Shown piece after piece: positions 2,312 through 57,174 of a stretch of 64,000 nt of DNA (its first letter is position 1; every line of letters begins with the position of its first letter). The notes below the pieces were generated by a model. The model saw only the letters and a program-made list of their open reading frames with translations, was not told the DNA's origin and ran no database searches. Location of the stretch: NCBI GenBank assembly GCA_003173865.1, contig PJMF01000012.1, positions 8,908 through 72,907 of the forward strand, read 5' to 3'. A program made the position numbers and the translations under genes. Source of the stretch: Minisyncoccota bacterium (GTDB lineage: Bacteria; Patescibacteriota; Microgenomatia; UBA1400; PJMF01).

Positions 2312-2314
2312 TTC

Positions 2315-4944: not shown

Positions 4945-4956
4945 TTTTTAACTTTT

Positions 4957-5730
4957 ATGAATAAAATGCCTTTGACATCAGCACCATTTCTCTCCGTGGT
5001 CGTGCCGTCGTATAACGAGATGCATAACATCTCCCGTGGTGTGCTCGATCAAATGTTAGAGTATTTAAAAAAACAAAGTTTTGATTGGGAACTGATTTTG
5101 AGTGATGATGGATCGAGCGATGGGACCTTTGAAGTGCTCGAGGATTTTGCCAAAAAATCGAAACACATCGTGCTCCTCAAAAATATTCATGCGGGAAAAG
5201 GACCGACCGTTCAAGCTGGAATGTTAAAAGCAAAAGGCCAGTGGCGTCTCTTTACTGACTTTGATCAATCTACACCACTCAAAGAAGTTGAGTTATTACT
5301 TCCGTTCACTGACCAGTATGAAATCGTGATTGGTTCGCGCGAAATCTCAGGCGCACGCCGCCGCCGTGAACCGTTGCATCGTCATGTGATGGGCAAGGCG
5401 TTTAACATTTTAGTACAGTGTCTAGCTATTCCCGGAATCCAAGATACTCAATGTGGATTTAAACTTTTTTCAGGTAAAGCTACTGAAAAAGTTTTTCCAA
5501 AACTGTTTGTGTATGGGCGTCAACCCGAGCGCCAAGATGCGTTTACCGGTGCATTTGATGTTGAGGCGCTGTATATTGCCCGTAAATTTGGCTTTCACAT
5601 CAAAGAAGTTCCTATTTTTTGGCAACATAACGAAACCGATCGTGTAAGTCCAATTAAAGATTCTTTGCGGATGCTCAGAGATATCGTCAGAGTCAGATTA
5701 GTTGATTTGAGCGGAAAGTATAAGAGTTGA
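4957..5730 (+). CDS. GT2 glycosyltransferase (polyprenol-phosphate sugar synthase-like)
   Basis: VVVPSYNEMHNI and LSDDGSSDGT motifs. Soluble GT-A fold protein of about 257 aa. Confidence 0.8.
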   Translation: MNKMPLTSAPFLSVVVPSYNEMHNISRGVLDQMLEYLKKQSFDWELILSDDGSSDGTFEVLEDFAKKSKHIVLLKNIHAGKGPTVQAGMLKAKGQWRLFTDFDQSTPLKEVELLLPFTDQYEIVIGSREISGARRRREPLHRHVMGKAFNILVQCLAIPGIQDTQCGFKLFSGKATEKVFPKLFVYGRQPERQDAFTGAFDVEALYIARKFGFHIKEVPIFWQHNETDRVSPIKDSLRMLRDIVRVRLVDLSGKYKS

Positions 5731-9297: not shown

Positions 9298-9382
9298 CGT
9301 AGACATTTTGTATTCAACTTCTTGCCTGGAGAATTTATAAAATTGAGAACGTCGGGTTTTGCTTTTTGATATACTTCATCAT

Positions 9383-10243
9383 ATGGACTCTTCGTCGCTC
9401 AAAAACTTTATTCAAAATATTACTGAAAAAATGCTTGAAGCAGGCGAAATTGCAGAAAAGTTTCAAGGCAAGGTTGCAAATATAAAAAAAGAAGTCGATC
9501 TCGATAATAATGCTCCTCAAAGAATTAAAGATCGAAATCAAGCAAAAACCGAGATTGATGAAAAAGTTCAAGAAATGCTTTTAGAGTGTGTGAAAGACAC
9601 TCTTGGGATCAACAATATTAGAATTGATGCCGAAGAAGATACAGCATTGAAGCAACTTTTTCCAAATGAAGCAGCTCAAGTAACCATCGTGATTGATCCT
9701 ATTGATGGTACCTTAGAGTATCTGAATGGAAGTGATAGGTATTCGATTAACGTTGGGGTCGTTTCTCATGGAGAAATGCTTGCCGCTTTAATTTATTTTC
9801 CGAAACTGAAAAAACTTTATTTCTTGGATAATCAAAAAACTTCCTACGAAGTAGCCTATACTTCTAGTCTAGAAGTTAAAGATAAAAAAGTTCTAAAAGG
9901 AAATGAACAACCGCAAAGAAATAAAGTATATGTAAATAATCGGGTGGCCACAGATTTAGTAGACAACTTAGAAAAAGCAGATTTTTCAGTAATTCAGGAT
10001 GATGGAGAAGTATCTTGGCCAGATGCGCTTTTAAAATGCATTTCTGGTGAATACTTTGCGAGTATTTTTCATAGTCCTCAAACAAGGGATGTTTTACTTG
10101 GAGCCTTAATTGAAAACTTAGAAAATGGATGGAAAGTGGACTGGGAAGGAAATAAAATTACTTGGCCAAATGGAGGGAGAATTCCTAGAGTGATTTTTGG
10201 TACAGGAGCTCTTCCGCGAGAAATTTTTGAGAGTTTAGAGTAA
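9383..10243 (+). CDS. Inositol monophosphatase / CysQ-like phosphatase family protein
   Basis: DPIDGT motif and overall length fit the IMPase family. ATG at 9383; the 9359 start in the ORF track is a TTG. Confidence 0.65.
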   Translation: MDSSSLKNFIQNITEKMLEAGEIAEKFQGKVANIKKEVDLDNNAPQRIKDRNQAKTEIDEKVQEMLLECVKDTLGINNIRIDAEEDTALKQLFPNEAAQVTIVIDPIDGTLEYLNGSDRYSINVGVVSHGEMLAALIYFPKLKKLYFLDNQKTSYEVAYTSSLEVKDKKVLKGNEQPQRNKVYVNNRVATDLVDNLEKADFSVIQDDGEVSWPDALLKCISGEYFASIFHSPQTRDVLLGALIENLENGWKVDWEGNKITWPNGGRIPRVIFGTGALPREIFESLE

Positions 10244-28698: not shown

Positions 28699-30393
28699 TT
28701 ACGCCTCACATGCATACACACACATTTTCGATTGATTAAATTTCTGCGCAGCATTCGTGCTGTGCTGATAATAGAGTGTCTTGATCTTTGACTCCCAAGC
28801 AAAAATGTACAAGTTATTAATATCCTTGGCTGGAACGCTTGGGTTAATCATCAAGTTCAATGACTGACCTTGGTCAATATACTGTTGACGTGTTGAAGCC
28901 TGATCAATAATCGCAATCTGGTCGATTTCACAAAATGTCTTGAACACTTCTTTTTCCTGTTCTGATAAAAACTCGAGATGTTGGACTGATCCGTCATTAT
29001 TACGAATTGAGTTCCAGACTTCTTTGGTATTCTTGCCTTTTTCCTCGAGCAACTTCTCGAGTGCCGGGTTTTTGATCGTCACTTTAATTTTTGCGATGTC
29101 TTTGACGTAACAGTTCGACCAAATTGGCTCAATACTTTGAGAAACTTGCCCAAGAATAAATGCTGATGATGTGGTCGGCGCAATTGCGTTGAGCGTGGTG
29201 TTCCTTCTACCGTATCCTTTCAGCAGTGAAGGCTCTCCAAACTCTTTTGCTAAATCTGCAGAGGCTTGGTACGACTTCTCTCGAATTGATTTGAAGACTT
29301 TGGCGTTGAGTTTTTTGGCTTCAATGCTCTCAAATGAAATCATTTTCGATTGAAGGTATGAGTGCCAACCCAACACTCCCAGTCCTAACGCTCGATTCGC
29401 AACTGCGAAGTTATATGCGCGTTCCATGAAGTAAAATGCTCTGCGGTCACTCTCTTTTTTAGAATCCCGGAAGTGTTCAAGCTTCTGAATAAACTCAGTC
29501 ATGACTGCATCGAGGAAGTACACCATGGTTTCGACTGCATCCGTATCTTTCCACTCGTCGTAATGTAAAAGATTGAGCGAAGATAAGTCGCAAACAAATG
29601 ACCACTCATCGTTCGTGGGTAACATGATTTCTGAACATAAATTACTGTGACGAATTGGCAGTTTTTTATCTTTGTATACGTCGACTGTGTAATTATTGAC
29701 GTTATCTTTGAAAAAGATATACGGATATCCCATCTCCACGCGGCGCTGAATCACTTTTGCCCAAATTTTGCGCTTCTTTGTATCGCCAGCAATCATTTCT
29801 TCCATAAATTTATCTGTTACCGTGACGCCATGCGTAAGCTCTTGAATGGGGTTGCCTTCTGTCCCAATCTCCAAAAATTCTTCGATATCTGGATGCTCAA
29901 CTGGCAAATAGGGCGAGAAAGCACCTCGCCGAGTGGAGCCTTGACTCACCACATTAATAATGGTTTCAAACAACTTCATGAAGTGCACAGATCCGGATGA
30001 AACTCCATTATCCGTAATGTCTGCCCCACGAGGACGTAAATCACCAAAGTAAGCACCCGTCCCGCCACCAAACTTCGTCATCATTCCCACCTCTGCTTGG
30101 GCATATAAAATTTGACTCATACTGTCCGAAATGTGCACGGAAAAACAACTAATGGGTAACCCTTTTTCCAGTCCAAAATTGGCCCAGATTGGAGTTGATA
30201 AAGAGTAGTACCCTTTTGCCATGTAGGTATAAAATTTATCCGCAAACCCTTTTTTCTTGAGGATTTTTTCAGCACGCTTCGCAATAAACTCAATGCGCTC
30301 CTCTGGAGTCACTCCTTCGGCGAGGTAGCCTCGATCGAGGAACTTGCGGCTGTTTTCATTTAACCAGGTGATTGGGGTGGTGTTTTTTTTCAT
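28699..30393 (-). CDS. nrdA: Class I ribonucleotide reductase alpha subunit lacking an ATP cone
   Basis: Catalytic N-x-C-x-E motif HSNLCSEI and a C-terminal Cys pair (CVYAC) for thioredoxin shuttling. No ATP-cone at the N-terminus. AAGGAG Shine-Dalgarno upstream. Confidence 0.8.
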   Translation of the reverse strand: MKKNTTPITWLNENSRKFLDRGYLAEGVTPEERIEFIAKRAEKILKKKGFADKFYTYMAKGYYSLSTPIWANFGLEKGLPISCFSVHISDSMSQILYAQAEVGMMTKFGGGTGAYFGDLRPRGADITDNGVSSGSVHFMKLFETIINVVSQGSTRRGAFSPYLPVEHPDIEEFLEIGTEGNPIQELTHGVTVTDKFMEEMIAGDTKKRKIWAKVIQRRVEMGYPYIFFKDNVNNYTVDVYKDKKLPIRHSNLCSEIMLPTNDEWSFVCDLSSLNLLHYDEWKDTDAVETMVYFLDAVMTEFIQKLEHFRDSKKESDRRAFYFMERAYNFAVANRALGLGVLGWHSYLQSKMISFESIEAKKLNAKVFKSIREKSYQASADLAKEFGEPSLLKGYGRRNTTLNAIAPTTSSAFILGQVSQSIEPIWSNCYVKDIAKIKVTIKNPALEKLLEEKGKNTKEVWNSIRNNDGSVQHLEFLSEQEKEVFKTFCEIDQIAIIDQASTRQQYIDQGQSLNLMINPSVPAKDINNLYIFAWESKIKTLYYQHSTNAAQKFNQSKMCVYACEA

Positions 30394-30413: not shown

Positions 30414-31676
30414 CTAAAATAAATCCTCGCTCGTAATACTTTTACTCCTTTTGTTGTAATTAATTGATCGTTTCACAAAAAAGTCTCCGTGCTTGGTCGC
30501 AATAATTTCATCGTCAAACCACTCGGTTTGTTCAAGCAGTTTTTTATCAATCGAAAAAAGACTCTGCAACCCAATACTCTTGAGCGAGTTATTCAGACGA
30601 TTTTTAATAAACTCTTTAATCACTGCTTTTGGCAAAAAGTCTAGTTCACCTTCTTCAAAGATCCAGTCGATGATGTCACTTTCTGCGTCATAAGCAGTCT
30701 GACATGACTGCAGAATCAGCTCTTTAAAGTGACCATCAAACCAGTCCGGATTTTCTTCTTTGATAATATTAATCACGTCAATTCCAAACAGCCCATGAAT
30801 TTGTTCTTCTTTAGAAGTAGCCTCGACCGCGTTCGAAATCCCTTTAAACATATTTTTAAATTTATTAAACGACATGATGATCAAAAATTGTGAGAAAAGT
30901 GAAACGTGCTCAATAAAAAGCGAGAAAAGTAAAATCGAACGGGTATACTCTTTGTTATCTTCACTTTTTGCAGTCGCGAGCGCAGTACTTAAGTAGTGAA
31001 TCCGTTCATTCATCACGGGAATCTTGAGAATGCGTTCGAACTCACTGTTCAATCCGAGCACTTCTAGTAAATGAGAGTACGCATCAAAATGCCTGACTTC
31101 ACTCTCCGCAAATGTATACCCGACTGCACCAATTTCGGGCTTCGGAAGTTTTTTAAATAAATCGCCCCAGAAAGTTTTGACTGAAACTTCAATCTGGGAA
31201 ATTGCCAGCATCGTATTCTTCAACGCATTTCGTTCGGCTTTCGTGGTGTTTACTTTAAAATCTTGGATGTCCGCTGTGTAGTTAAACTCTGTGTGCAACC
31301 AATACGAGTGACGAATAGCGTCTACATACTCAGCCAATTGAGGATATTCATAAGGCTTGAGAGGAACTCTCTTTTTGAAGATATCTTTTTTGCGTTCAAG
31401 TCGTTTTTTTTCGCGATACAGAATGTACGCTTTCGCCACTACGAGAAAATTACTTTCCATTAAGGTTTCTTCCACAATGTCTTGAATTTTTTCGACTGTT
31501 AAAGGATGTTTGTTACTTTTCTTCAGTTTAATTTCTACCTTCAGCGAAACTTTTTTGGCATCTGGTTTGGTGCCCACTTTGACGGCTTTCATTGCCGCCC
31601 AAATCGCTTTGGTGATTTTTTCGTTATTGTAGGTTTCTAAAGTACCATCTCTTTTTTCGATTTGCGTTATCTTCAT
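30414..31676 (-). CDS. nrdB: Class I ribonucleotide reductase beta subunit with N-terminal ATP-cone (NrdBi-like)
   Basis: N-terminus IEKRDGTLETYNNEKITKAIWAAMKAV is an ATP-cone. Ferritin-like ExxH iron-ligand pairs (ESEVRH, EEQIH). ATG at 31676 with an AGAGG Shine-Dalgarno. Confidence 0.75.
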   Translation of the reverse strand: MKITQIEKRDGTLETYNNEKITKAIWAAMKAVKVGTKPDAKKVSLKVEIKLKKSNKHPLTVEKIQDIVEETLMESNFLVVAKAYILYREKKRLERKKDIFKKRVPLKPYEYPQLAEYVDAIRHSYWLHTEFNYTADIQDFKVNTTKAERNALKNTMLAISQIEVSVKTFWGDLFKKLPKPEIGAVGYTFAESEVRHFDAYSHLLEVLGLNSEFERILKIPVMNERIHYLSTALATAKSEDNKEYTRSILLFSLFIEHVSLFSQFLIIMSFNKFKNMFKGISNAVEATSKEEQIHGLFGIDVINIIKEENPDWFDGHFKELILQSCQTAYDAESDIIDWIFEEGELDFLPKAVIKEFIKNRLNNSLKSIGLQSLFSIDKKLLEQTEWFDDEIIATKHGDFFVKRSINYNKRSKSITSEDLF

Positions 31677-31680
31677 AAGT

Positions 31681-31900
31681 GCCTCTATAACAAAAAGCCA
31701 CCTTCGAGAGGTGGACAAATACGACTGCATACTCCAGCCGATGTTCCTTGCTCGAGAAATTAAAAGAAGATTCAGGCAGTCTGACTTATCCGTTTAAGGA
31801 CATTACAGTTACGGCATAGCCGTGGAATCGCACCACACTTCCCCTGACGGGCTGAGGTCTGATTCTCAGTATCTTCTGCTATTTAGTTTCTGTAATCAAT
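31681..31900 (-). promoter_or_regulatory. Putative cobalamin riboswitch with intrinsic terminator, in the 5' leader of nrdB-nrdA
   Basis: Minus-strand leader contains AGGGGAAGUGUGGUGCGAUUCCACGGCUAUGCCGUAACUGUAA and AAGUCAGACUGCCUG. These resemble the cobalamin core (AGGGAA..GGUG.AA.UCC..GCC.ACUG) and the B12 box (AGYCAGG..CC.GCC). A CCACCU-loop-AGGUGG hairpin plus a U-run follows at 31689-31714, just before the Shine-Dalgarno. Confidence 0.45.
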
Positions 31901-42834: not shown

Positions 42835-43695
42835 TTATTTAGAAATCCACAGCATGCTTAAATCAAACACTTTTGCGGAATGTGTAAGGGCGCCGGAAGA
42901 AATATAATCCACACCGGTTTCAGCAATTTGACGGACATTTTCCAAAGTGACATTGCCAGATGCTTCGAGTTTTGCTTTTTTTGCGTTGTCGGCGTTGAGT
43001 TTCACTGCTTCGTGCATCATTTCCACACTCATGTTGTCGAGTAAAATATACTCAACTCCCAATTCCAAACCAATCTTCACATCTTCGAGCGTACGCGCCT
43101 CAATTTCGATTTTTAAGTTCTGATTCGCAGCACGCGCTTTTTGGACTGCCTTAGACAGCGATCCAGCAAAATCAATGTGATTATCTTTTATCAAAATCAT
43201 GTCGTACAAACCCATCCGGTGGTTTTGCCCCCCACCACGTTGTACCGCGAGTTTATCTAATCGACGCAAACCTGGAGCGGTTTTGCGCGTGTCAAGCATC
43301 ACCGTTTTTGTTCCTTTTATCGCGTCAACAAATTGATTCGTCATCGTGGCAATGCCCGACATTCGACCCAAAAAATTGAGCGCTGTTCGTTCGGCAGTCA
43401 AAAGAGCTCGTGCGTTTCCAGAAATCTCAACCAACGCTTTTCTATTCTCCACTTGTGAGCCCTCGGTTACTTTCATAATAAATTTTACCTTTGGATCAAA
43501 CAACCGAAATGTCGCTGCAGCCACATCCAGACCAGCAACCACACCTTTCTGTTTCGCAATAATCTGCGCGCTCATTCGTGCCTCAACAGGTACAATGCTA
43601 TTCGTCGTGACATCACCTTCACCAACATCTTCAGCCAAAGCGTGAGTAATTGTTTCGAGAATGGAGGGAGAAAGTGCAGTTGTATTCATTTTCAT
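42835..43695 (-). CDS. nadC: Nicotinate-nucleotide pyrophosphorylase [carboxylating] (quinolinate phosphoribosyltransferase)
   Basis: DMILIKDNHIDFAGS and ILLDNMSVEMMHEAV motifs typical of NadC. Confidence 0.85.
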   Translation of the reverse strand: MKMNTTALSPSILETITHALAEDVGEGDVTTNSIVPVEARMSAQIIAKQKGVVAGLDVAAATFRLFDPKVKFIMKVTEGSQVENRKALVEISGNARALLTAERTALNFLGRMSGIATMTNQFVDAIKGTKTVMLDTRKTAPGLRRLDKLAVQRGGGQNHRMGLYDMILIKDNHIDFAGSLSKAVQKARAANQNLKIEIEARTLEDVKIGLELGVEYILLDNMSVEMMHEAVKLNADNAKKAKLEASGNVTLENVRQIAETGVDYISSGALTHSAKVFDLSMLWISK

Positions 43696-44470: not shown

Positions 44471-45022
44471 TTAACCTACCGCCAACATCCGTTCAATTGG
44501 CAACCTTGCCCTTTCTGCAATTTCAGCTGGAACCCTAACCTCAAACTTTAAATTCATTAAACTATCCAATAACTTCTCCAACGTAATCATTTTCATAAAT
44601 TTGCATACCATGTCATCGCGCAAAGGATAAAACTTTTTCTCTGGATTTTGCTTCCGCAGTTGGTGGATAATACCATTTTCTGTGGCCACCACATATTCTT
44701 TCACTGGAGATTGTCGAACATGAGTCAACATGCCACCTGTAGATAAGATATGTGTTTTTTGTTCAGGGATTTCTTTTGTTGCCGCATAGTGAATACATTC
44801 TGTTGTGCAACCGCATTCAGGATGAATTAAAAATTCTGCTGATGAATGTTCGCTGAGTTTCTTTAAAACATCTTTTAAATTCGCGCGTGCATGAACGTGA
44901 CACTCACCCGGATAAACATAGATTTTCCGACCAGTCATTCTTGCCACATAACTTCCTAAAAATAAATCCGGCACAAAAATGATTTCCTTATCTTTTGGAT
45001 TATATCGTTCAAAATAATTCAA
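44471..45022 (-). pseudogene. nadA: Quinolinate synthase NadA, 5'-truncated (only the C-terminal ~2/3 present)
   Basis: Contains YPGECHVH, HPEC and MVCKFMKMITLEKL motifs, corresponding to the second and third NadA repeat domains (two of three Cys ligands). The frame opens with TTG and no N-terminal domain is encoded before the divergent gene at 45077. Confidence 0.55.
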
Positions 45023-47826: not shown

Positions 47827-48303
47827 TTATGCGCTTGCCATCCCAACTGATAAGTGGTTGTTATGTCCATGAGTGAAGTGAGTTTTTCTTCGTATTATCA
47901 CGATTAAAGCAATAATCAGAAGCACACTGAAAAGTATCGGCGAATACCAGACAAAAAGCTGTGTCCAATTTTGCGTGAAAGTAGTAATATGCGAAACTTG
48001 GCCATTTTGATCTGTGACCATAGTGACGTGATCATTTAATGCTAGAGGTGAGCTTGTTTTATCCCAAATTGGACGCTCAACTTTCACATGTTGTGGCATC
48101 ACGACTTGGGTGACTTGATTGCCTTGTTGCACTTTGACTACTGTGTTATTTATTGCCACCAGTGTGCCGTTAATCGTTGTTTGATGTTGCTGTGAAGGAA
48201 ATGCAATTGCTTGGGAACTCGGAGCAAGACTTACTGCAGTCAGTTGACCGAGTAAAAAGAAAAGAGTGAGAGAAAAATTTCGATCGTATCTTGGATATTT
48301 CAT
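47827..48303 (-). CDS. Hypothetical exported protein with C-terminal membrane anchor
   Basis: N-terminal signal-like segment and a C-terminal TM (LFSVLLIIALIVIIRRK). Gln/Thr-rich ectodomain. Confidence 0.45.
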   Translation of the reverse strand: MKYPRYDRNFSLTLFFLLGQLTAVSLAPSSQAIAFPSQQHQTTINGTLVAINNTVVKVQQGNQVTQVVMPQHVKVERPIWDKTSSPLALNDHVTMVTDQNGQVSHITTFTQNWTQLFVWYSPILFSVLLIIALIVIIRRKTHFTHGHNNHLSVGMASA

Positions 48304-48402: not shown

Positions 48403-48430
48403 TTGACAATCCCAGACAGTCCATTATAAT
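48403..48430 (+). promoter_or_regulatory. Sigma-70 consensus promoter (TTGACA, 16-nt spacer, TATAAT)
   Basis: TTGACA at 48403-48408 and TATAAT at 48425-48430. The sequence CAGTCC...ATAATTT is shared with the promoter at 57184. Confidence 0.5.
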
Positions 48431-48437
48431 TTCCTAC

Positions 48438-48518
48438 ATGTTCGCAGGTCTTTTATACTCTATCTCTAGTCTTCTTCTCCTTATTATTATCAAGGCGCAT
48501 CTCGCTTGGGAGAAGTAG
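48438..48518 (+). CDS. Candidate leaderless small ORF (26 aa, hydrophobic: MFAGLLYSISSLLLLIIIKAHLAWEK)
   Basis: ATG lies 7 nt after the -10. The ORF ends before the intrinsic terminator at 48543-48567. Could instead be a leader peptide or an sRNA. Confidence 0.3.
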   Translation: MFAGLLYSISSLLLLIIIKAHLAWEK

Positions 48519-48542
48519 TATTAAAGTAAAAAGAAATACACA

Positions 48543-48567
48543 CCCCTCTCAAGCAGAGGGGTTTTTT
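48543..48567 (+). terminator. Intrinsic terminator hairpin (CCCCTCT-caagc-AGAGGGG plus T6), 17 nt upstream of the 48584 start codon
   Basis: Perfect 7-bp GC-rich stem followed by TTTTTT. Nearly identical to the hairpin at 57327-57353. Confidence 0.55.
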
Positions 48568-48583
48568 GTTTTAGAAAGGTTTT

Positions 48584-51277
48584 ATGAGTAGTAACAAAGG
48601 AACTGCGGAATCTAGGATTCTTGCTTCCAGTGAAATTTTTCATCAAGAAGAGCAGTTAAAGCAGGCGGCAGATAACTTATCTAAACGTTGTTTTAATGCA
48701 ATGTTTAACAGAGCCGTTCAAACATCTGGAAATCTTCAAGAAACAAAGCTACCTAAAAAAGGCCAAAAAGGCGAATCTATTCAAGCAAAGCCTATGCTGG
48801 GATACCGTCGACCAGGCGAGTTTTTTTCTGTCCAAGGTATAGATTCTCAGCAAGAACTTGAAGCTATTTTTAATAGTCTTATTCTCAATGCCCTGCGTAA
48901 ACTCGCAGCGGAAGCAACAACTCCCGAAGAGCGAAAATTGAAAACCGAAATGCTAGGGATGGTGTTACCCGATTTTATTAGAGCATTAGTTTTAGATGGC
49001 GAGTTCATTGATCATATTCATGCAGATGATATTTCAAACATAGTAGATATTGCTTTAGATTGGTTCCTCCATCCGGAATTAGTCTCTCTGACACAAATTA
49101 AAATCGGTTTTGGAGGTAATGAGGAAGCGAACAGTCGTATGCCTGCTTATCCAATCAGTGCAATTCGTACTGCCGAAAGAGTCCAAGAAACTTTTGGTAG
49201 ACATCGAAACTGGGCGCTCTTAAAAGAGTTATATAAACTGACCGAAAAATCTGAAGACATTCGCCAGGCTTTAGAACTACACACAGAAGAATTTCTTTTT
49301 GTGAAAAGACAGGATGATGCTTCAATACCAACTCACGATTCAAGTACATACAGTGAGTTTGTACGAGACGAGCTTGCGAACTGTCAATATGTACGTGTTC
49401 AAGATGTTACTATGATCTTGCTAAAAACTTTTGCAGCTCTTGGTCACCCTTTAACCGAAAAAGAACAGGTTTCTCTGGCCCAAAAATATCACTTCACGGA
49501 CCAAACTCCTACTTTAGTATTTTTTAATGCTGCTCACGCAGCAATTACTATTAACTCGATGAATCGAGAGGCGGTCTTACAAACCCGCGAATACAACAAA
49601 GCTTTGATCACTGCCTACATGTCGGAATTTCATCCAGATCTTCCTATGCCTATATTTCAAAATGATCGAGATTGGAGTGAACATGACTCTTTCACCAAAC
49701 TCATGATTCTCTATGCCCAATTTGTCATTGAAAGTCATAGAGACGAAATGGGTGGAGTCGATGATCAGTTAGAGTCATTTGAAGCAAATCACCGTCAGAA
49801 TGCAAAAAGTACTCATTATGGAATGAATCCTGCCAAAATTTACGGATCTCTTCATCCATATTTCTTTGGTGATTCTCCCAATACCGAGAGCGGTGACCAA
49901 CTTCCTTTCAACAACGTGATGACTCCTCTTTTCCAACCTCGTCATATCGTTGGCCATCAAGGTGTCCCTGAGGTTACTTTTGGTGTCTATAGAGACGTTT
50001 TCAAAAGACATGCCAATCTACGAGATCTAGTGGAATGGTTAAAAAGAACAGAAAATTTGTCAAAAACATCCCTCTCTCAACTAGCAATAGAAGTTGATAC
50101 AAAGGTCATGGAAGCAGAAACACCTTCTTATGGCAAGAGGTTAATCGACTATATCACTAAAAAGGTGATGCCAGAAGCCAATATTGTTTCAACATCCAAA
50201 AACAAATTGCTGGAGAAGGCAAAGCATTTAAGGAATGAAGAGAACTCAGAAGTAGCCAGACAAGAATGGCTCTCCTTTTGTGCAGAACTTCAGTCTGAAG
50301 ATATTTTTGCTAAAACTGGAGTGACTGCTGACGAAGTAAGTAATGCGTTAATTCAAGTTCAAACTTGGCAGAGTGAAGCAAGAAATTTAAACGAACGTCT
50401 CTTTGCAACTACTGACCCAGATCAGCGTTTTGAAATCACAGAGCAATTGGCCGATTCATCTATTCCTATTCCAGTGCGAAGCACTGTGCGTATTGGAACA
50501 TCTGTGGGAAAACATGCCACTTATTATCTCAAAGAAGGTGATACACCTTTAGAAGGTTTCCACTCGGCTGATCAAATTTCATTAGTAAACTATACTCAAC
50601 GCTTTACTGCTGCAAGTTTGAATAAGCGCACTTTAGAAGGAACTGTTCCTTACACACAAAAAAATGTCTTGCCTGCTCTCATTGATAGTGACACCTCAAG
50701 AGGATGGGATATTTTTGCAGCCGCTTTAGCCGATCAATTGGGAACTATCTTTGGTGAAGAAGTATTTGCTCAATGGATGTCGGAAGACGTTGATAAAATG
50801 GCGAATCTTTATCGAGGCTCTGTTCAGGAAGAGCTAACATTTCAAGGAGATAAAGTAGAAAAAGCATCTCACGTTCATAATTTTCTTAGTCAAGGTATTC
50901 AAAACATCGCAGAAGAAAGAATTCAGGTCATCTTGGATGAAGCAGCACATCAAGGTATTACTTTAGAAACTCAGGGAGTCCGCCACTATGTATGGTCCGC
51001 CTTAGTTGGCTCATGGACCACTGAAGGTGGTAAGCAAGCGATTACTGATTCAGAAGTCATTGTCGACGAGATTCGAAGCACTATGTCCGACTTTATGGTC
51101 ATACTTCACGATGTCGCTCAGGCAAAAGGATATCATGGTTCTTCTGAAGAATTGGCCAAGGATGCTGGATGGATTGCTCTAGCAGAAAGAGAGTATCAAA
51201 AGGTAATGAGAAAAATATTCGCTGAGGATCAAGTAAACAGCGACGCTGTGCTGTTTGCTGCTGTGGCTGAGATTTAA
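48584..51277 (+). CDS. Large hypothetical protein (897 aa), soluble, no recognisable domain
   Basis: Long uninterrupted ORF with a GAAAGG Shine-Dalgarno. No TM segments and no known catalytic motifs recognised by eye. Confidence 0.6.
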   Translation: MSSNKGTAESRILASSEIFHQEEQLKQAADNLSKRCFNAMFNRAVQTSGNLQETKLPKKGQKGESIQAKPMLGYRRPGEFFSVQGIDSQQELEAIFNSLILNALRKLAAEATTPEERKLKTEMLGMVLPDFIRALVLDGEFIDHIHADDISNIVDIALDWFLHPELVSLTQIKIGFGGNEEANSRMPAYPISAIRTAERVQETFGRHRNWALLKELYKLTEKSEDIRQALELHTEEFLFVKRQDDASIPTHDSSTYSEFVRDELANCQYVRVQDVTMILLKTFAALGHPLTEKEQVSLAQKYHFTDQTPTLVFFNAAHAAITINSMNREAVLQTREYNKALITAYMSEFHPDLPMPIFQNDRDWSEHDSFTKLMILYAQFVIESHRDEMGGVDDQLESFEANHRQNAKSTHYGMNPAKIYGSLHPYFFGDSPNTESGDQLPFNNVMTPLFQPRHIVGHQGVPEVTFGVYRDVFKRHANLRDLVEWLKRTENLSKTSLSQLAIEVDTKVMEAETPSYGKRLIDYITKKVMPEANIVSTSKNKLLEKAKHLRNEENSEVARQEWLSFCAELQSEDIFAKTGVTADEVSNALIQVQTWQSEARNLNERLFATTDPDQRFEITEQLADSSIPIPVRSTVRIGTSVGKHATYYLKEGDTPLEGFHSADQISLVNYTQRFTAASLNKRTLEGTVPYTQKNVLPALIDSDTSRGWDIFAAALADQLGTIFGEEVFAQWMSEDVDKMANLYRGSVQEELTFQGDKVEKASHVHNFLSQGIQNIAEERIQVILDEAAHQGITLETQGVRHYVWSALVGSWTTEGGKQAITDSEVIVDEIRSTMSDFMVILHDVAQAKGYHGSSEELAKDAGWIALAEREYQKVMRKIFAEDQVNSDAVLFAAVAEI

Positions 51278-51307: not shown

Positions 51308-52429
51308 ATGAAAACAGACATCATTGAAGTATTGACTAAGCTTGTTTCATTCCAAACAGTGTCAGCTACAAGTGATCAAGAAAAAAACGCATTCCACGCT
51401 CAGCAATTTGTTGAAGCACACGAATACATCAAGCATTTATTTCAAGACACTCCCTTAATTGTTGAGACTATTGAAACTGCTGGTAAAAAAACTCTTACTG
51501 TTTCAAATAAAAAAACGATCGCTCCTGATATTGCAATGATTGTGCATTTAGACGTAGTCCCAGCCGGGGAGAGCTTATGGACAATGCGACAAGAGGGCGA
51601 TAGGCTCTTTGGTCGAGGCGTTTCCGACATGAAGGGCAGTATTACCGCCTGTTTAATAGTGATGAGAGAATTAGTAAAAATGAAATCAAATGATTTGCCT
51701 TCAGTCATGTTAATTATCACCCCCGACGAAGAAATCGGTGGTGCCTCAATGAAATTTCTACGTGACAAATTAAAATACTCTCCTCAATTTGTGCTTTGTC
51801 CTGACGGCGGTTATGGGTGGAAAATGGTTACGAATGCAAAAGGATGCCTACAGTTTCACTTTCAAACAACTGGAAAATCTGCTCACGCCTCACGACTCGC
51901 TGAAGGAGTGAATGCAGCAGAACCCCTGATTGAATTGTACCAGCAGCTACGTCGTGTTTTTCCCCATCAAAACGAAGCAGCTTGGGAAACAACAACTTTT
52001 AATTTAGGAGCCTTTCATACAGGTCAAGCCGCTAATCAAGTTCCAGATTTGGCAGAAATGAAGCTAGACTTTCGTTTCACTAATCAAAGTGAACGAGCGC
52101 TAATTGAGAAAGAACTCCAATCTGCAATCAACGCAAGTCCGTTAGAAATTAAAACTCTATCAGTCGTTGATGGTCATTTTTTTGAATCCAATCCTAATCA
52201 TCAAATCACGAAAAAATTCCTTTATTGTGTAGAAAAAGTGATCGGCAAACAGATTGAATTTGTAAAAGAGTACGGTGCTTCTGACGCAAGGTTCTTTACA
52301 GACGTGCCAACAGTTGTTTTGATCGGAGACGGGAAATATCATCATTCTTCAAAAGAAGAAATGTCTTTAACGAGTTTGGAACAATATGCCGAAGCAGTAC
52401 TAACATTTATTAAGAGTTATCGCCAATAA
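51308..52429 (+). CDS. M20-family metallopeptidase/deacylase (ArgE/DapE-like)
   Basis: HLDVVP metal-ligand motif and GRGVSDMKG catalytic region. Confidence 0.8.
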   Translation: MKTDIIEVLTKLVSFQTVSATSDQEKNAFHAQQFVEAHEYIKHLFQDTPLIVETIETAGKKTLTVSNKKTIAPDIAMIVHLDVVPAGESLWTMRQEGDRLFGRGVSDMKGSITACLIVMRELVKMKSNDLPSVMLIITPDEEIGGASMKFLRDKLKYSPQFVLCPDGGYGWKMVTNAKGCLQFHFQTTGKSAHASRLAEGVNAAEPLIELYQQLRRVFPHQNEAAWETTTFNLGAFHTGQAANQVPDLAEMKLDFRFTNQSERALIEKELQSAINASPLEIKTLSVVDGHFFESNPNHQITKKFLYCVEKVIGKQIEFVKEYGASDARFFTDVPTVVLIGDGKYHHSSKEEMSLTSLEQYAEAVLTFIKSYRQ

Positions 52430-53381
52430 GGGTGAGAAAATTTGGCATCAAAACCTCGCGAGGTCTATTCGTTTTTCTTTCCCAGATCTGTCTTTGAAGG
52501 TCAGCCAATCCCTGCGTACCACGTTCTTGAGTAATGGCTTGAGCTCTTAATAAAACTATTGCTGCGAGCATCGCATTCGTTATTTCAGGATGATTTTGAA
52601 CAGAGACAATGGGCCTATCTTTATAACTCAGCATTTGATTCTTGCCGGCACAATTAGATGCAAGTACATCGGCATTTTTGGGTTTTTGAGAAACATGTTG
52701 CGAATGAGTCGCTGAAATAGTGAGAGAATCTCCTTCATAACAATGAAGTAAAGGTTCCGATTTCGCCCTTTCAGTCAGTTGAATATCAACAGGGCCAATC
52801 TCCCGTTCTCTATTACCTCCAGTAGAAGTCATCCAAGAAACCTCTCCGCCCTGACAAAACGCAAACAACTGATGACTAAAACAAATGAGTAAACTCGGAG
52901 TTTGACTTAACGACAACACTTTATCAAAAGCAAGTACCCGTCTAATCCAAGGAGCATCCTGATGATGCATATCATGGATTGTTGTGACCATTGCCTCGGA
53001 TCCAGACATAATCACCCCATCGTACTCTTCCAACTGACGAGGAGGAGATGTTTCACCCTGACTTGCATGCCATACTTCAAAACGCTCATCATGTGGACTA
53101 AAACCAAGTTGGTAACGAAAAATATCGGAAACCGTATGATTACCCGAATGACCTACAGCGCCTATTTCGAGTAATTTTCTGCGCTCAGAGTTGAGTGGAG
53201 CAAAAAGACCATTTCCCCACCGTAATGCTAACTCTACAAACAAGATTTTAGATTGAGTCCTCAATTTATCGGCAACAACTCTTATCATTTCACGATGATG
53301 TGTTTCAGTATCTGCAATCTCTTCCTCACAACATTGTTTCTCTTGCTGAGTTAATGGAGAACTTATTTCTGCGAATGCCAT
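52410..53381 (-). CDS. Class I glutamine amidotransferase-like / peptidase C26 (gamma-glutamyl hydrolase-like) protein
   Basis: Nucleophile elbow LLICFSHQLF (Cys-x3-Gln) and a downstream NHPE His-Glu pair. About 100-aa N-terminal extension. Confidence 0.6.
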   Translation of the reverse strand: MAFAEISSPLTQQEKQCCEEEIADTETHHREMIRVVADKLRTQSKILFVELALRWGNGLFAPLNSERRKLLEIGAVGHSGNHTVSDIFRYQLGFSPHDERFEVWHASQGETSPPRQLEEYDGVIMSGSEAMVTTIHDMHHQDAPWIRRVLAFDKVLSLSQTPSLLICFSHQLFAFCQGGEVSWMTSTGGNREREIGPVDIQLTERAKSEPLLHCYEGDSLTISATHSQHVSQKPKNADVLASNCAGKNQMLSYKDRPIVSVQNHPEITNAMLAAIVLLRAQAITQERGTQGLADLQRQIWERKTNRPREVLMPNFLTLIGDNS

Positions 53382-53384
53382 ACA

Positions 53385-54494
53385 TTAATCCAATATTAGT
53401 TTCTCTACCGTATATTTCTTCAGTTTCATTTCATCGACTTCAAAACCCAACCCAGGCGCTGTCGGCACTTGAATATTTCCCTCGAGGTCAACAGTAAAAC
53501 TGTCTTTTACCAAATCATCTTTGTAGTAAAAACTATTTGGAGACATGTCTGCGGGATCAATAAAGTTCGGCAACGAAGCAACTGCAATGTTAAACGCTCG
53601 TCCAATACCTGTCTCAAGCATGCCACCACACCATACCCCCACATGTTGGGCTTGGCAAAGATCGTGAATTTTTTTACTTTCTAAAATACCGCCTACACGA
53701 CCGGGTTTGATGTTAATAATTTTGCAAGCACCAAGAAAAAGTGCTTTACGTGCATCTTCCACTGACAAAATGCTTTCATCTAAACAAATTGGTGTTTTAA
53801 TTTGCTTTTGCAGCACAGAGTGATCGACAATGTCGTCATCTCCAAGTGGTTGCTCGATCATTGTCAGATTATATTGATCAAGTTCTTTAAAAATCTCGAT
53901 CTGGTCGAGTGTAAACACAGAGTTTGCATCAACCATCAAGGGAACGTCACCAAACCTCGCACGCACTGCTTTGACCAGCTTGACGTCCCAACCAGGCTTA
54001 ATTTTCAGCTTCATACGCTGATACCCTTGAGAAATTCTTAACTCAATTTCTTCCAAAGTCGCCTCAATAGAATCCTTAATCCCAATACTTTCTCCTGCTC
54101 CAATCTTTGCGCGCGTGCCACCAAGCAAAGCCGACAGAGAACGTTCTTCTTGCAAAGACTGGACCATCAATAATGCTGTCTCTAAACCTGTTTTCGCAAA
54201 ATTATGTTTTTTAATAATTTTTAATTCATCCATGACCGCTTGGACTGTGGTGAACTCCTTATTCAAGACGAGCGGCGCAATATAATCGCGCAACACTAAC
54301 ATACAAATATCAGTCGTATCTGGCTTATAAAATGGATACGGCATTGCAGCGGCTTCCCCATATCCAATGAGTCCATCTGCCATTTCAACTTGAACGATCA
54401 CGGTGGCTTTACTTTCCAATTTCCACGAGCTCACTGCAAAAGAAGTGACCATCGGCACATCGACTTTGTAGAGAGTAATTTTTTTTATTTTCAT
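53385..54494 (-). CDS. Enolase-superfamily enzyme (MR/MLE family; dipeptide epimerase / OSBS / N-succinyl-amino-acid racemase-like)
   Basis: KIKPG catalytic lysine pair. Metal ligands in DANSVF, MIEQPL and CLDES. N-terminal capping domain. Start overlaps the upstream stop (ATGA). Confidence 0.8.
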   Translation of the reverse strand: MKIKKITLYKVDVPMVTSFAVSSWKLESKATVIVQVEMADGLIGYGEAAAMPYPFYKPDTTDICMLVLRDYIAPLVLNKEFTTVQAVMDELKIIKKHNFAKTGLETALLMVQSLQEERSLSALLGGTRAKIGAGESIGIKDSIEATLEEIELRISQGYQRMKLKIKPGWDVKLVKAVRARFGDVPLMVDANSVFTLDQIEIFKELDQYNLTMIEQPLGDDDIVDHSVLQKQIKTPICLDESILSVEDARKALFLGACKIINIKPGRVGGILESKKIHDLCQAQHVGVWCGGMLETGIGRAFNIAVASLPNFIDPADMSPNSFYYKDDLVKDSFTVDLEGNIQVPTAPGLGFEVDEMKLKKYTVEKLILD

Positions 54495-56125
54495 GAAATG
54501 ACAACCTCTCGTAATTGAATTAATTCTCTGAGTGCACGTTCTAGAGACATTGTTTTTTGTTTTTCATTTACAAAAGCGAGGGCTCGATCAGCACCATTTT
54601 GTTTTTGTTGTAACACCCACTGTGGATAAGCCAAGAAAGTTTGCTCTTCTGTAGATAATCCTTCGGCAGCTAAATCCAGGATTCTTTGTGTAAATGTATA
54701 AACCGAAAGATCCTCTACTACTCCGTCTAATCCTTGTTCAATAGCTACATCGCGTAACTTACTGAGTTGTCCCCAAGGAAAATGTTCAATGTATTTTTTT
54801 GTTTTATCTAAATTGCGAATTAAGCCAGCTTGCAATGCCGATGGACTTGTTGCCACCGAAAGTGCAATTTCTTTTCCCGCAGCATAAAGCTCTCGATCAG
54901 GAAGATTTGATCCAGGCGCTCTGCCCTCGATATACATAAAATGCGCATGTGCTTCAAAGATTTCTTCTACTTTCATTTGCGAAGTTTCTTTGCACGCTGC
55001 AACAAACTCCGCAACTGGAAAACCATCTTTTTTCAATGAATAACGAATACGACCTCCTGCTTCAAACTGCGCAAACTGCAGTACTTCCATATGCGCAATT
55101 TCTGGCGAAACTTCATACGCTTTAATAGCAGTTCCCGTAATAATCTCCGATAAATTCCGAGCTTTCCAAGTCTTCCCATCTAAATAATCGAGGACTGGTG
55201 GATTCCCATCCACGATCATGATGTCATCTTTTGCGTTTTTGTAACCAACTGCGCTCTGACTTGGCATCACAAAATAAATACCACTATCGCCACCAAACAT
55301 CCATTGAAAATATTGTGCGAGATTTTGAAATGGTTTATCGGGAAAACGAATCAAACGTCGATCACCAGCAACAGTTGACCCACTCATCATGCGCTCCCAC
55401 ATCATCAAACGATTTTCTTTGTATTGAGAAATCTTTCCTTCCTCAAAAGGACTGTTTGCAAAAAGTGCAATATTGGCCGCACTCGCACCGATGATCACAG
55501 TAAGTGCATCAGCTGCTTGAGAAACAGCAACTTGAGTACTGGGACTATTTTGCGCTCGCGCATCAATTCCAGCCGAATGATCCCAACCACGCTGCCACAA
55601 AAAGTCATACACTCCTTTCGGCACGACAAATTTTTTGTATGTCTTCATGTCTCTTGGAGCAAGTGGGTGAATTGATAGATTTATGGCAAAAGCATCTTCA
55701 GCTTGTAACGCCTTTTGAGTAGTTGAAATATCAAGTTGAATCGCTTTATGTAATTCCTGGAGCGTTTCGAATGGTGGCAAAGCTGTCTCTAATAAATTGA
55801 ATCCATTGTCCAAACCTTGCTCACCAAGATCTTGGCTGACAACTCCTACCGCAACTGTTTTCCCTTTTTTATCCTTTAAATTGTGAAGATGATCAAATGT
55901 GTGACGATGACTTGCCTGTTTGCTTAATTCATTAAAAAACACATCAGTAACATGATGAGAACTCCCGTCCTTTTTAGAAACGATAGTTTTCTCAAGTTCA
56001 GCACCAAATTTTTCGTTTTTCTTGACTAATTTTGACACAGGTGATTTTAACATATCTTTGCTTGAATATTTTGCTTTTTTAAAAAAATGCTGTACAATTC
56101 TGGGACATGTCGAGGCATGAAACAT
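54491..56125 (-). CDS. Glutamate--cysteine ligase family protein, plant/proteobacterial GshA type
   Basis: ALFANSPFEEGK closely matches the plant-type GCL segment ALFANSPFTEGK. Also NEKFGAELE and NGFNLLETALPPFETLQELH resemble the GTEHEKFGFE and SGAPLETLHQ regions. Alternative ATG at 56053. Confidence 0.6.
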   Translation of the reverse strand: MFHASTCPRIVQHFFKKAKYSSKDMLKSPVSKLVKKNEKFGAELEKTIVSKKDGSSHHVTDVFFNELSKQASHRHTFDHLHNLKDKKGKTVAVGVVSQDLGEQGLDNGFNLLETALPPFETLQELHKAIQLDISTTQKALQAEDAFAINLSIHPLAPRDMKTYKKFVVPKGVYDFLWQRGWDHSAGIDARAQNSPSTQVAVSQAADALTVIIGASAANIALFANSPFEEGKISQYKENRLMMWERMMSGSTVAGDRRLIRFPDKPFQNLAQYFQWMFGGDSGIYFVMPSQSAVGYKNAKDDIMIVDGNPPVLDYLDGKTWKARNLSEIITGTAIKAYEVSPEIAHMEVLQFAQFEAGGRIRYSLKKDGFPVAEFVAACKETSQMKVEEIFEAHAHFMYIEGRAPGSNLPDRELYAAGKEIALSVATSPSALQAGLIRNLDKTKKYIEHFPWGQLSKLRDVAIEQGLDGVVEDLSVYTFTQRILDLAAEGLSTEEQTFLAYPQWVLQQKQNGADRALAFVNEKQKTMSLERALRELIQLREVVIS

Positions 56126-56202
56126 TTACTTTTAGTTTTTTCTTTTTTACCAAACTTCCTCAAAGGGAGCTTTGCTAATTGAACTGAAAAAGCAACGCAA
56201 TA

Positions 56203-56225
56203 ACTCCCTAAAAGGGAGTTTTTTT
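56203..56225 (+). terminator. Terminator-like hairpin (ACTCCCT-aaa-AGGGAGT plus T7) between divergent genes, 20 nt upstream of the 56245 start; possible attenuator
   Basis: Stem plus U-run. An upstream AGGGAG at 56164-56169 could pair alternatively with the CTCCCT arm. Confidence 0.4.
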
Positions 56226-56244: not shown

Positions 56245-57174
56245 ATGATTTCAACTCAAGAAGCAACTAGTCAACGAATCTCTGAAATGGCGCAAGTTAT
56301 TAACAACGCGCTATCCGCAACTCAAGAAATGATGCCCAAATTGATTAATAAAACAGTTCCAGTTGAAAATGCCTCAGGAACCGACATTATTATGGGTATC
56401 GGTCTCGTTTCGAACGGCAAAGTGAGCAGGGGCTTAAATCCGAGTGCCATTCCAATGGCCATAGCAGCCACCAATTTGCAGCGTGAAATCCAACAAAATG
56501 ATTATCGAAGCAAAATTAAGGTGTTAATTGCGGACACGTACGCAAAACAATTCCACAGAGAATATATTAATGCTGCTTACGCCGATGACGATGAACTTGA
56601 TCGAGATCCCGTAGCAGAAGCTGCTGTTTCGATCGAGCAAGCTCTAGGATTGCTGTTCATTGCTCTCGGAGCAACCGCAGATGTTGAAATTATTCGCACA
56701 TCGGATCTTGAAACTCCTAATTTTGAAACTTATGAAGAACAAGAAACCTATCACCTCAGTCGCGCTGTTGAAGAAGGTGCCGGTCTCATCGTCGGTTGGT
56801 CAAGCGAACGAGCACCATTGCCAGGAATGCCACCAGTTCGCGATGAAACCGTGTTTCATCGACATATGGATAAAGAACATCCAGATCTTCGCGGTATGTC
56901 AGGGAGGTTATACACCGTCGAAGGCCTTAGTTTAACTGACCAAATAAAAGGTCAGGCTCAATATGTCCCTCCTTACTTCACGACTCGAGTTGAAGCAGCT
57001 CTGGGCACAATTGTCGATTTAGAAGGACTAATAGACAAAAAAAACCAATTAAAAAATTTCTTTAAAGAGGTGGGGAGAGCACTTCGTAAAATTTTGCCAG
57101 GCGAAAAGACGGATGGGAAAGGTGATTTGCAGATCGTTCATGAACTGGTGAGAGAAATCGCTACTCAGGTGTAA
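56245..57174 (+). CDS. Hypothetical protein (309 aa)
   Basis: ORF with an AAGGAG Shine-Dalgarno. No recognised motif. Confidence 0.5.
   Translation: MISTQEATSQRISEMAQVINNALSATQEMMPKLINKTVPVENASGTDIIMGIGLVSNGKVSRGLNPSAIPMAIAATNLQREIQQNDYRSKIKVLIADTYAKQFHREYINAAYADDDELDRDPVAEAAVSIEQALGLLFIALGATADVEIIRTSDLETPNFETYEEQETYHLSRAVEEGAGLIVGWSSERAPLPGMPPVRDETVFHRHMDKEHPDLRGMSGRLYTVEGLSLTDQIKGQAQYVPPYFTTRVEAALGTIVDLEGLIDKKNQLKNFFKEVGRALRKILPGEKTDGKGDLQIVHELVREIATQV

Follow-up and report, generated by a model that had tools for sequence, protein, structure and literature searches.

Transcription attenuators of the trpL, leuL, ilvL and pheL/pheM type share a common layout—a short leader ORF (open reading frame) in which codons for the amino acid that is sensed follow one another, exclusive 1:2, 2:3 and 3:4 pairings in the leader RNA, and a terminator ahead of the first structural gene. 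One study (PMC12006748) describes operons that combine an N-succinylamino acid racemase (NSAR) with an M20-family hydrolase as a known pathway for converting D- to L-amino acids, with racemases that prefer hydrophobic side chains; the Geobacillus kaustophilus version consists of an N-succinyltransferase, an NSAR and an M20 N-succinyl-L-amino-acid hydrolase (Sakai et al. 2006, cited in PMC12006748). Here we analyze gene X, an 897-codon ORF in a 64,000-nucleotide stretch (the window) of the Minisyncoccota bacterium contig PJMF01000012.1, where both kinds of system have counterparts. X is a genuine gene under constraint, represents a new family and lies behind an attenuator with a leucine- and isoleucine-rich leader; its neighbours and those of its relatives tentatively suggest a role in amino acid salvage. 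The elements of the gene and its leader are as follows.

48403-48430, forward strand: sigma-70-type promoter, with TTGACA at 48403-48408, a 16 nt spacer and TATAAT at 48425-48430, matching the consensus at 12 of 12 positions.
48438-48518, forward strand: leader ORF of 26 codons, MFAGLLYSISSLLLLIIIKAHLAWEK, plus stop codon, with a run of four Leu and three Ile codons (LLLLIII) at 48471-48491.
48471-48480, forward strand: attenuator region 1, CUUCUUCUCC (Leu codons), the partner of region 2 when the RNA is free.
48505-48520, forward strand: attenuator region 2, overlapping the leader stop codon at 48516-48518.
48543-48572, forward strand: intrinsic terminator, with the G+C-rich hairpin CCCCUCU/CAAGC/AGAGGGG at 48543-48561 followed by the U-run UUUUUUGUUUU at 48562-48572.
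48584-51277, forward strand: gene X, with an ATG start, encoding 897 amino acids; here the founding member of an undescribed family.

The first-pass annotation of the window had proposed a strong promoter and an attenuator upstream of X, and both proposals hold up on closer analysis. The promoter is a perfect consensus match, and near-consensus promoters (TTGACA or TTGCAA with TAnnnT) are equally placed in 10 related loci. The leader ORF starts 7 nt past the -10 box, and hence the mRNA would be leaderless or nearly so. In the free RNA, CUUCUUCUCC pairs with GGGAGAAG in both the minimum free energy and the centroid folds (1:2 duplex, -15.7 kcal/mol), and the terminator, whose U-run ends 11 nt ahead of the X start codon, forms with a probability of 0.99. 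The segment CUUGGGAG (48505-48512) has a choice of partners: region 1, or CUCUCAAG (48546-48553), which is the terminator's 5' arm and loop. This antiterminator (2:3) duplex has an energy of -14.6 kcal/mol, a value reached by none of 300 shuffled sequences. To simulate a ribosome we masked 30 nt around each A-site codon and folded the remainder at equilibrium; the terminator probability then fell from 0.99 to between 0.09 and 0.40 only with the A site at S10 to L15, while a ribosome on the stop codon, which sits inside region 2, left it at 0.99. The leader of X has the architecture of an attenuator—an ORF with regulatory codons precedes a terminator, and the 2:3 and 3:4 pairings are mutually exclusive.

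Of the 12 loci examined, 11 share this architecture, two loci of a short form of X among them. Leader ORFs in the other 10 loci are rich in Leu and Ile (with Val or Phe in some), with runs such as NLVLLITR, FIVLLITP, VMIFLIYP, FIIFLLSHA and NLFLITF, and lengths across the set range from 14 to 35 codons. Overall, X leaders contain 17% Leu, 12% Ile and 5% Phe, compared to 9%, 6% and 5% in background proteins. Region 2 lies at or beside the leader stop codon across the loci, and it co-varies with the terminator stems, which differ from locus to locus (CCCCUCU, CCGCC, CCCGCC, CCUCCC and GACCCCCGCC). The 2:3 duplexes range from -11 to -19 kcal/mol, and in 10 of 11 loci no more than 4.3% of shuffled sequences attain such an energy; masking flips the terminator only at Leu/Ile codons in six to seven of 10 leaders. 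Terminators of the 10 other loci end 0-16 nt from the start codon, with the U-tract directly abutting the X start (0 nt) in six. In several loci the 3' arm of the terminator, GGGAGG, lies 7 nt ahead of the ATG, and with it the switch would lay a ribosome-binding site open as well.

These features suggest the following sequence of events. Transcription would start at the consensus promoter, and the 26-codon leader would be translated almost from the 5' end of the message. With ample charged Leu- and Ile-tRNA, the ribosome would reach the leader stop codon and cover region 2, the terminator would form, and transcription would halt before X. A ribosome stalled at LLLLIII would instead cover region 1 and free region 2, which could then pair with the terminator's 5' arm and loop, allowing RNA polymerase to continue into X and the M20 gene behind it. 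In several relatives the freed GGGAGG arm would serve as a ribosome-binding site too. From sequence, folding and conservation, we infer that X expression rises when Leu/Ile-tRNA is scarce.

The X leaders differ from the trpL, leuL, ilvL and pheL type in several respects. They fall below the Rfam thresholds: nothing reached the gathering level in the window or in nine related loci, and the sub-threshold scores were 29.3 bits for Phe_leader (threshold 55) and 26.2 for Trp_leader (threshold 41). In most loci only 7-15 nt separate the -10 box from the ORF, in the six loci mentioned there is no gap between U-tract and start codon, the 3' arm doubles as a Shine-Dalgarno sequence, and the gene under control, X, is not among the known biosynthetic genes. 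We rejected a T-box or riboswitch leader, because there is no Rfam match and a translated Leu/Ile ORF explains the element. One related locus (L003) has a second leader of this kind at 9329-9459: an Ile-rich ORF, MNLKIFSIINITIASPKGGLFA, with a CCUCCC/GGGAGG terminator and seven U residues, directly ahead of an 87-codon ORF at 9460-9723. It seems that such attenuators are used repeatedly in these genomes.

A small ORF and a hairpin directly ahead of the gene for a large, unknown enzyme, together with nearby ligase, epimerase and peptidase genes, could also be read as a ribosomally synthesised and post-translationally modified peptide (RiPP) or pearlin-like system, in which the small ORF encodes a precursor or scaffold peptide modified by X and these enzymes, and the hairpin sets the ratio of precursor to enzyme. 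We consider this extremely improbable. Leader length (14-35 residues) and sequence are unconserved except for the Leu/Ile runs, the leaders of a paralog discussed below contain Phe runs (such as FFFFFF) typical of attenuators, the stop codon consistently falls on region 2, and changes in the terminator go along with changes in the 2:3 pairing. Pfam scans found no LanB/PEARL, YcaO, radical-SAM or other RiPP-enzyme domains. The likeness of X to the LanB-type glutamylation enzymes and PEARLs is limited to being large (800-1000 residues), mostly helical, soluble and located beside small ORFs; however, Lant_dehydr_N and Lant_dehydr_C were found in none of 59 X family members, and no LanB appeared among the top 50 Foldseek matches of the X model.

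The X protein itself is largely as the first-pass annotation described it. Its gene is the longest ORF of the window (the next encodes 571 residues) and follows a proper Shine-Dalgarno sequence, AGAAAGG, at 48573-48579. The protein is soluble by prediction, with a grand average of hydropathy of -0.40 and a highest 19-residue hydrophobicity window of 1.29, below the level of a membrane helix; neither a signal peptide nor a membrane segment was found. No domain is recognisable: searches of X against Pfam, NCBIfam, PADLOC and PDB sequences gave no family and no match, and a profile search of the PDB found nothing, synthetases included. This agrees with the suggestion that X is a candidate for a new function. 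Our literature searches returned no description of the X family or of its gene cluster. A role in a known defence system was rejected on the PADLOC scan, where the best match to the anti-phage models was an insignificant one to PtuA (E 0.007, 13 bits). What the first-pass annotation had missed are the relatives of X (about 55), the conserved neighbourhood, the Leu/Ile-rich leader peptide and the paralog with Phe-rich leaders.

How many relatives are visible depends on the search. A word-indexed homolog search revealed a single relative and listed just two proteins when run with the profile, and scans of contigs gave one locus in genome contigs and none in metagenome contigs; an exhaustive HMMER search returned 59 proteins at E<1e-3, 20 of these at E<1e-30. 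About 20 relatives are full-length (800-1190 residues, 27-38% identical), and about 36 are short-form (415-670 residues), retaining the core only, with most of the helical part absent. Twenty positions keep their residue in 90% or more of the 59 family sequences: G175, G177, G178, R185, Y189, A319, A320, D361, Y420, H424, F428, D430, P441, G460, E463, F466, R470, Y647, Y648 and D653. Neither a Pfam scan of the 59 members at E<=10 nor NCBIfam and PADLOC scans of X and its relatives gave a recurrent family. Regular-expression searches found HIGH (H[IVLMFA]GH) and KMSKS (K[MLIF]S[KAST]S) in none of the 59, and a conserved Walker A motif was likewise absent from all of them, in keeping with the reported lack of a Walker motif. 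For the pair L001 and L002 the ratio of nonsynonymous to synonymous substitution rates is about 0.17, with synonymous sites saturated. X is more than a chance ORF, since its relatives are intact and this ratio is low; a pseudogene was rejected because all relatives are intact ORFs, with no frame-shifted remnants among them.

Hints to the function of X come from its neighbours. In the window these are:

51308-52429, forward strand: M20 (ArgE/DapE-type) deacylase or peptidase, 30 nt downstream of X (Pfam Peptidase_M20, 7e-25, and M20_dimer).
52410-53381, reverse strand: class I glutamine-amidotransferase-like protein, a possible gamma-glutamyl hydrolase (Pfam GATase, 4.7e-11; PRK09065, 103 bits, below cutoff).
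53385-54494, reverse strand: enolase-superfamily enzyme of the NSAR/OSBS (o-succinylbenzoate synthase) subgroup (TIGR01928, 342.7 bits against a cutoff of 200.65).
54491-56125, reverse strand: GCS2-like (glutamate-cysteine-ligase family 2/YbdK-type) carboxylate-amine ligase, 544 residues (Pfam GCS2, 3.7e-9).

The co-directional M20 gene and the convergent operon (52410-56125, reverse strand) had both been noted in the first-pass annotation and are confirmed here. The M20 gene is probably co-transcribed with X; its product scores 159 bits with TIGR01910, below cutoff, falls under every equivalog cutoff, and has 2rb7 (1e-31) as its best PDB match. Assignment of the enolase-superfamily enzyme to the NSAR/OSBS subgroup is firm at the level of sequence comparison, and its best PDB matches are N-acylamino acid racemases, led by 1sja (3e-87) and followed by 4a6g, 1r0m and 2zc8.

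This neighbourhood is conserved, an aspect that the first-pass annotation had proposed for checking. A GCS2-like gene (460-540 residues, 45-52% identical to that of the window) lies directly after X in L001, L002, L003, L005, L009 and L011, and NSAR-type and M20 genes follow in L002, L003 and L011, where the NSAR-type genes are 66-69% identical to the window gene. L006 has a divergent version of the partner set in the convergent arrangement seen in the window. In total, the set of GCS2-like, NSAR-type and M20 genes stands beside X in seven of the eight long-family contigs with enough sequence to judge. The GATase-like gene is not kept in other X clusters. The window is also syntenic with L008 on a larger scale, sharing GluRS, S11 peptidase and AspRS-like genes on one side of X and RecJ, CCA-adding enzyme and SecF/SecD on the other; L008 carries a short-form X at the chromosomal position of the long-form X of the window. 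A gene of the class III aminotransferase fold, which includes isoleucine 2-epimerase, follows short-form X in L008 and L012 and lies two genes away in L004.

Other neighbours differ among the loci. Upstream of the X cluster in L002, at 1541-5727, are Mur-ligase-like (MurT-like), alpha/beta-hydrolase, DegT-type aminotransferase and FemAB-family genes, a context of cell-wall type; L002 belongs to a metagenome-assembled genome deposited as an uncultured gammaproteobacterium. The L003 cluster has asparagine-synthase-like and beta-lactamase-like genes inserted. In L005 (7879-9417) and L011 (58-1582), a short trigger factor (281-288 residues, Trigger_N and Trigger_C only) and a DUF5660 protein precede the X cluster; this context suggests that the two loci come from a shared, unusual lineage.

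The partner set resembles a route in which a D-amino acid is acylated, racemised and deacylated to the L-form, and we therefore propose, as a tentative explanation and the one we prefer, that X is the Leu/Ile-specific component of an attenuator-controlled, starvation-induced pathway for salvage or stereo-inversion of hydrophobic amino acids. X would act on Leu, Ile or a derivative together with the GCS2-like ligase, the NSAR-type racemase and the M20 deacylase. As in Geobacillus kaustophilus, an NSAR/OSBS racemase is present, here next to a putative M20 deacylase, and the link to hydrophobic amino acids fits the racemase preference given in PMC12006748. The differences from that pathway lie in the acylation step and in the additional proteins. 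No acetyltransferase-family gene that could fill the role of the GNAT succinyltransferase was found in the window cluster, L003, L006 or L011; in its place is the conserved ATP-dependent GCS2-like ligase, which would be the obvious substitute. X, its paralog and the GATase-like protein of the window are additional.

The paralog, X', offers a second line of evidence. X' is a gene of 334-344 codons in L002, L006 and L011 that belongs to no known family. Compared to the X core by hhalign, it matches X residues 297-481 with a probability of 89.9% (E 1.7e-6) and retains the FHP, Y...H, E..F and HYY motifs; X' is by sequence comparison a remote homolog of the core. Each X' gene has its own attenuator, and the leaders are Phe-rich in all three loci (MNVTRRKEFFFFFFLANRGASV, MNRTTKRFGLFVFFTPFISGANM and MNNLRKYFAFYFAFRKEGGLV; 24% Phe overall). 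X' may therefore be the Phe-specific counterpart of X. The window contains an attenuator of the Phe type as well:

56107-56225, forward strand: second attenuator of the window, with the Phe-rich leader ORF MSRHETFTFSFFFFTKLPQRELC at 56107-56178, the hairpin ACUCCCU/AGGGAGU at 56203-56219 and a U-run.
56245-57174, forward strand: ORF of 309 codons with no known family, behind the Phe-type attenuator, in the same position as X' in L006.

Masking at this second attenuator lowered the terminator probability to 0.03-0.25 with the A site on T6 to F11. Its leader ORF, MSRHETFTFSFFFFTKLPQRELC, begins within the first codons of the divergent GCS2-like gene. The 309-residue protein has no detectable similarity to X or X'. 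It appears that each member of the X superfamily is paired with particular amino acids, and leader composition is the strongest functional clue to them. A broader proposal is that X and X' make up a new superfamily of amino-acid-specific enzymes, each under its own attenuator (Leu/Ile for X, Phe for X'), whose joint and as yet undescribed reaction would give auxotrophic bacteria with small genomes a source of L-amino acids, drawn from D-, N-acylated, cyclic or tRNA-bound ones, at times when charged tRNA is scarce. The superfamily might be an offshoot of the class I synthetase/cyclodipeptide-synthase fold without ATP motifs; we regard this fuller version as possible but rather doubtful.

Structure prediction gave a fold for X and a lead to its origin. 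AlphaFold with X alone reached a predicted local distance difference test (pLDDT) score of 37; with the 59-sequence family alignment the model is confident (pLDDT 89.4, predicted template modelling score 0.88). It consists of a long N-terminal helix (8-41), the conserved alpha/beta core (about 89-480, with strands at 142-146, 170-177, 310-316, 357-361 and 454-459), a helical region (480-630), a strand and YY loop (633-655) that returns Y647 and Y648 toward the core, and a C-terminal bundle (667-897) of four helices of 33-52 residues each. The core, with its conserved R, Y, D, Y...H, D, E, R and YY residues, probably binds an amino acid or aminoacyl moiety.

A Foldseek search of the PDB with this model returned nothing at E<1e-3, and against the viral structures of BFVD every match had a probability of at most 0.15, that is, noise. 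The only PDB matches with a probability above 0.5 are to synthetases of class Ic, with TyrRS or TrpRS represented by about seven independent entries, not significant at E 0.04-0.4 (probability 0.54-0.80, template modelling scores 0.24-0.35); ABC-transporter helical noise (probability <=0.13) aside, such synthetases dominate the list. By our reading, the X core is colinear with the class Ic synthetases (TyrRS/TrpRS, PF00579) and cyclodipeptide synthases (PF16715): IGFGG follows a strand, and then come a hydrophobic strand with NAAxAA, Y...HPxxFxD and GGxPExxFxxxR. In contrast to the class Ic synthetases, X has neither HIGH nor KMSKS, is negative in profile comparison, is three times longer and carries large helical additions. 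X may have a core derived from the class I aminoacyl-tRNA-synthetase/cyclodipeptide-synthase fold that has lost the ATP motifs, a speculative relationship that we treat as a lead only because all sequence tests were negative. A confident remote homolog of X was found neither by hhalign, where TyrRS and cyclodipeptide synthase stay below 1%, nor by Foldseek, whose best PDB match has E 0.04.

If the lead were followed further, X could be an aminoacyl-tRNA-dependent transferase, similar to a cyclodipeptide synthase or another tRNA-dependent former of peptide bonds, within a cluster for biosynthesis and not for salvage. From Leu-tRNA or Ile-tRNA it would make a small peptide or an aminoacylated metabolite, to be tailored by the ligase, the racemase/epimerase and the M20 enzyme. 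Consistent with this, the TyrRS/TrpRS fold that X weakly matches is shared by the cyclodipeptide synthases, which, like X, lack HIGH and KMSKS; and to our eye the Y-x3-H...F-x-D and YY residues recall Y178-x3-E182 and Y202-H203 of AlbC. The FemAB and Mur-ligase-like genes of L002 and the asparagine-synthase-like and beta-lactamase-like genes of L003 would suit a biosynthetic cluster. Synthetase genes lie beside or near X in the window, L001, L002, L004 and L008, but such neighbours are expected in regions dense in housekeeping genes, and for this reason we give their adjacency no weight. We judge a transferase of this kind unlikely: inducing a consumer of Leu/Ile-tRNA during scarcity of that very tRNA is physiologically implausible, hhalign against AlbC gives a probability of 0.1%, PF16715 matches none of the 59 members, and the catalytic serine of cyclodipeptide synthases (in G-x-S-x-x-N) is absent from X and 53 of the 59 members, where the loop reads G-[FY]-G-G followed by a variable residue.

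The salvage explanation must itself be weighed against a number of results, beginning with the pathway. Ligase, racemase and deacylase already complete a three-step pathway on paper, so that X has no obvious vacant step to fill, and its sequence yields no derivable reaction. The M20 protein of the window is only 27-29% identical to those of the other clusters and is not their ortholog, and the ligase/racemase operon of the window is transcribed separately, without a Leu/Ile leader. On the RNA side, the leaders of L006, L008 and L009 have a very stable terminator that remained unopened in the equilibrium simulation. The fold link finds no echo in sequence: apart from the AlbC comparison above, hhalign of the X family against MjTyrRS and a 20-sequence TyrRS alignment gave probabilities of 0.2-0.3%, and neither PF00579 nor any other Pfam family recurred among the members at E<=10. 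(The AlbC and MjTyrRS query sequences were verified by Pfam, with PF16715 for AlbC, and by PDB searches.) Lastly, X evolves fast. Between L001 (2661-5108) and L002 (7617-10136) X is 58% identical, compared to 90-91% for the flanking CysRS and GCS2-like proteins, which is unusual for a core metabolic enzyme. The leaders of the two loci share 91% nucleotide identity, and the divergence of X falls mostly outside the core, with 80-90% identity in core blocks and 38-48% in helical parts.

This divergence bears on two further explanations. X could be a non-enzymatic helical protein—structural, regulatory or secreted and effector-like—that is co-regulated with amino acid metabolism genes. Over half of X consists of long helices, where the 38-48% identity contrasts with the 90% of its neighbours, and a catalytic motif of known type is absent. 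However, some 20 conserved polar and aromatic residues cluster in one alpha/beta core among relatives only 18-30% identical, part of this residue set persists in the 334-residue paralog, the short family drops most of the helical part and keeps the core, and X has no signal peptide or membrane segment; a non-enzymatic X is thus distinctly improbable. Alternatively, X could provide resistance or a back-up when inhibitors or analogues block the charging of Leu- and Ile-tRNA, for instance by acting as a decoy or hydrolase for mimics of aminoacyl-adenylates; X would be induced because such inhibitors stall ribosomes at Leu/Ile codons. An attenuator would answer to charging rather than to the amino acid pool, a synthetase-like pocket minus the ATP motifs is possible, and fast divergence relative to the neighbours is expected in a conflict. 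This leaves the racemase, ligase and deacylase partners and the Phe-regulated paralog unexplained, though, and X has no likeness to known resistance enzymes, carries no mobile-element signatures and keeps its chromosomal position. We hold a resistance factor to be very improbable.

Enzyme-like proteins of 800-1000 residues that are conserved, yet cannot be placed by current sequence and structure libraries, are rare. X comes with functional labels: its leader (Leu/Ile, or Phe for the paralog) and its partners (racemase, ligase and deacylase). Its biochemistry is therefore directly testable with few candidate substrates. If the salvage explanation is true, it would show how uncultured, probably auxotrophic bacteria meet a shortage of hydrophobic amino acids, and would add a new enzyme family to the metabolism of D- and N-acyl-amino acids. 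The attenuator is of interest in its own right as a compact control of transcription and translation with a near-leaderless leader ORF, outside the Rfam families, and the codon content of such leaders lends itself to annotating further unknown genes of these lineages.

Three other places in the window deserve mention. The small subunit of ribonucleotide reductase (30414-31730, reverse strand) has an N-terminal ATP-cone domain, and the large subunit (28699-30393, reverse strand) is short at 564 residues, an unusual arrangement of the allosteric domain. Divergent from the X promoter region, an ORF of 158 codons (47827-48303, reverse strand) encodes a protein with a hydrophobic N-terminal segment, a C-terminal membrane-like helix and no family match. 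An ORF of 183 codons (44471-45022, reverse strand) aligns with quinolinate synthase NadA over the C-terminal half alone (profile positions 133-295 of 295) and adjoins an intact NadC gene (42835-43695); nadA may be truncated or split here, or the start of the ORF may have been mis-called.

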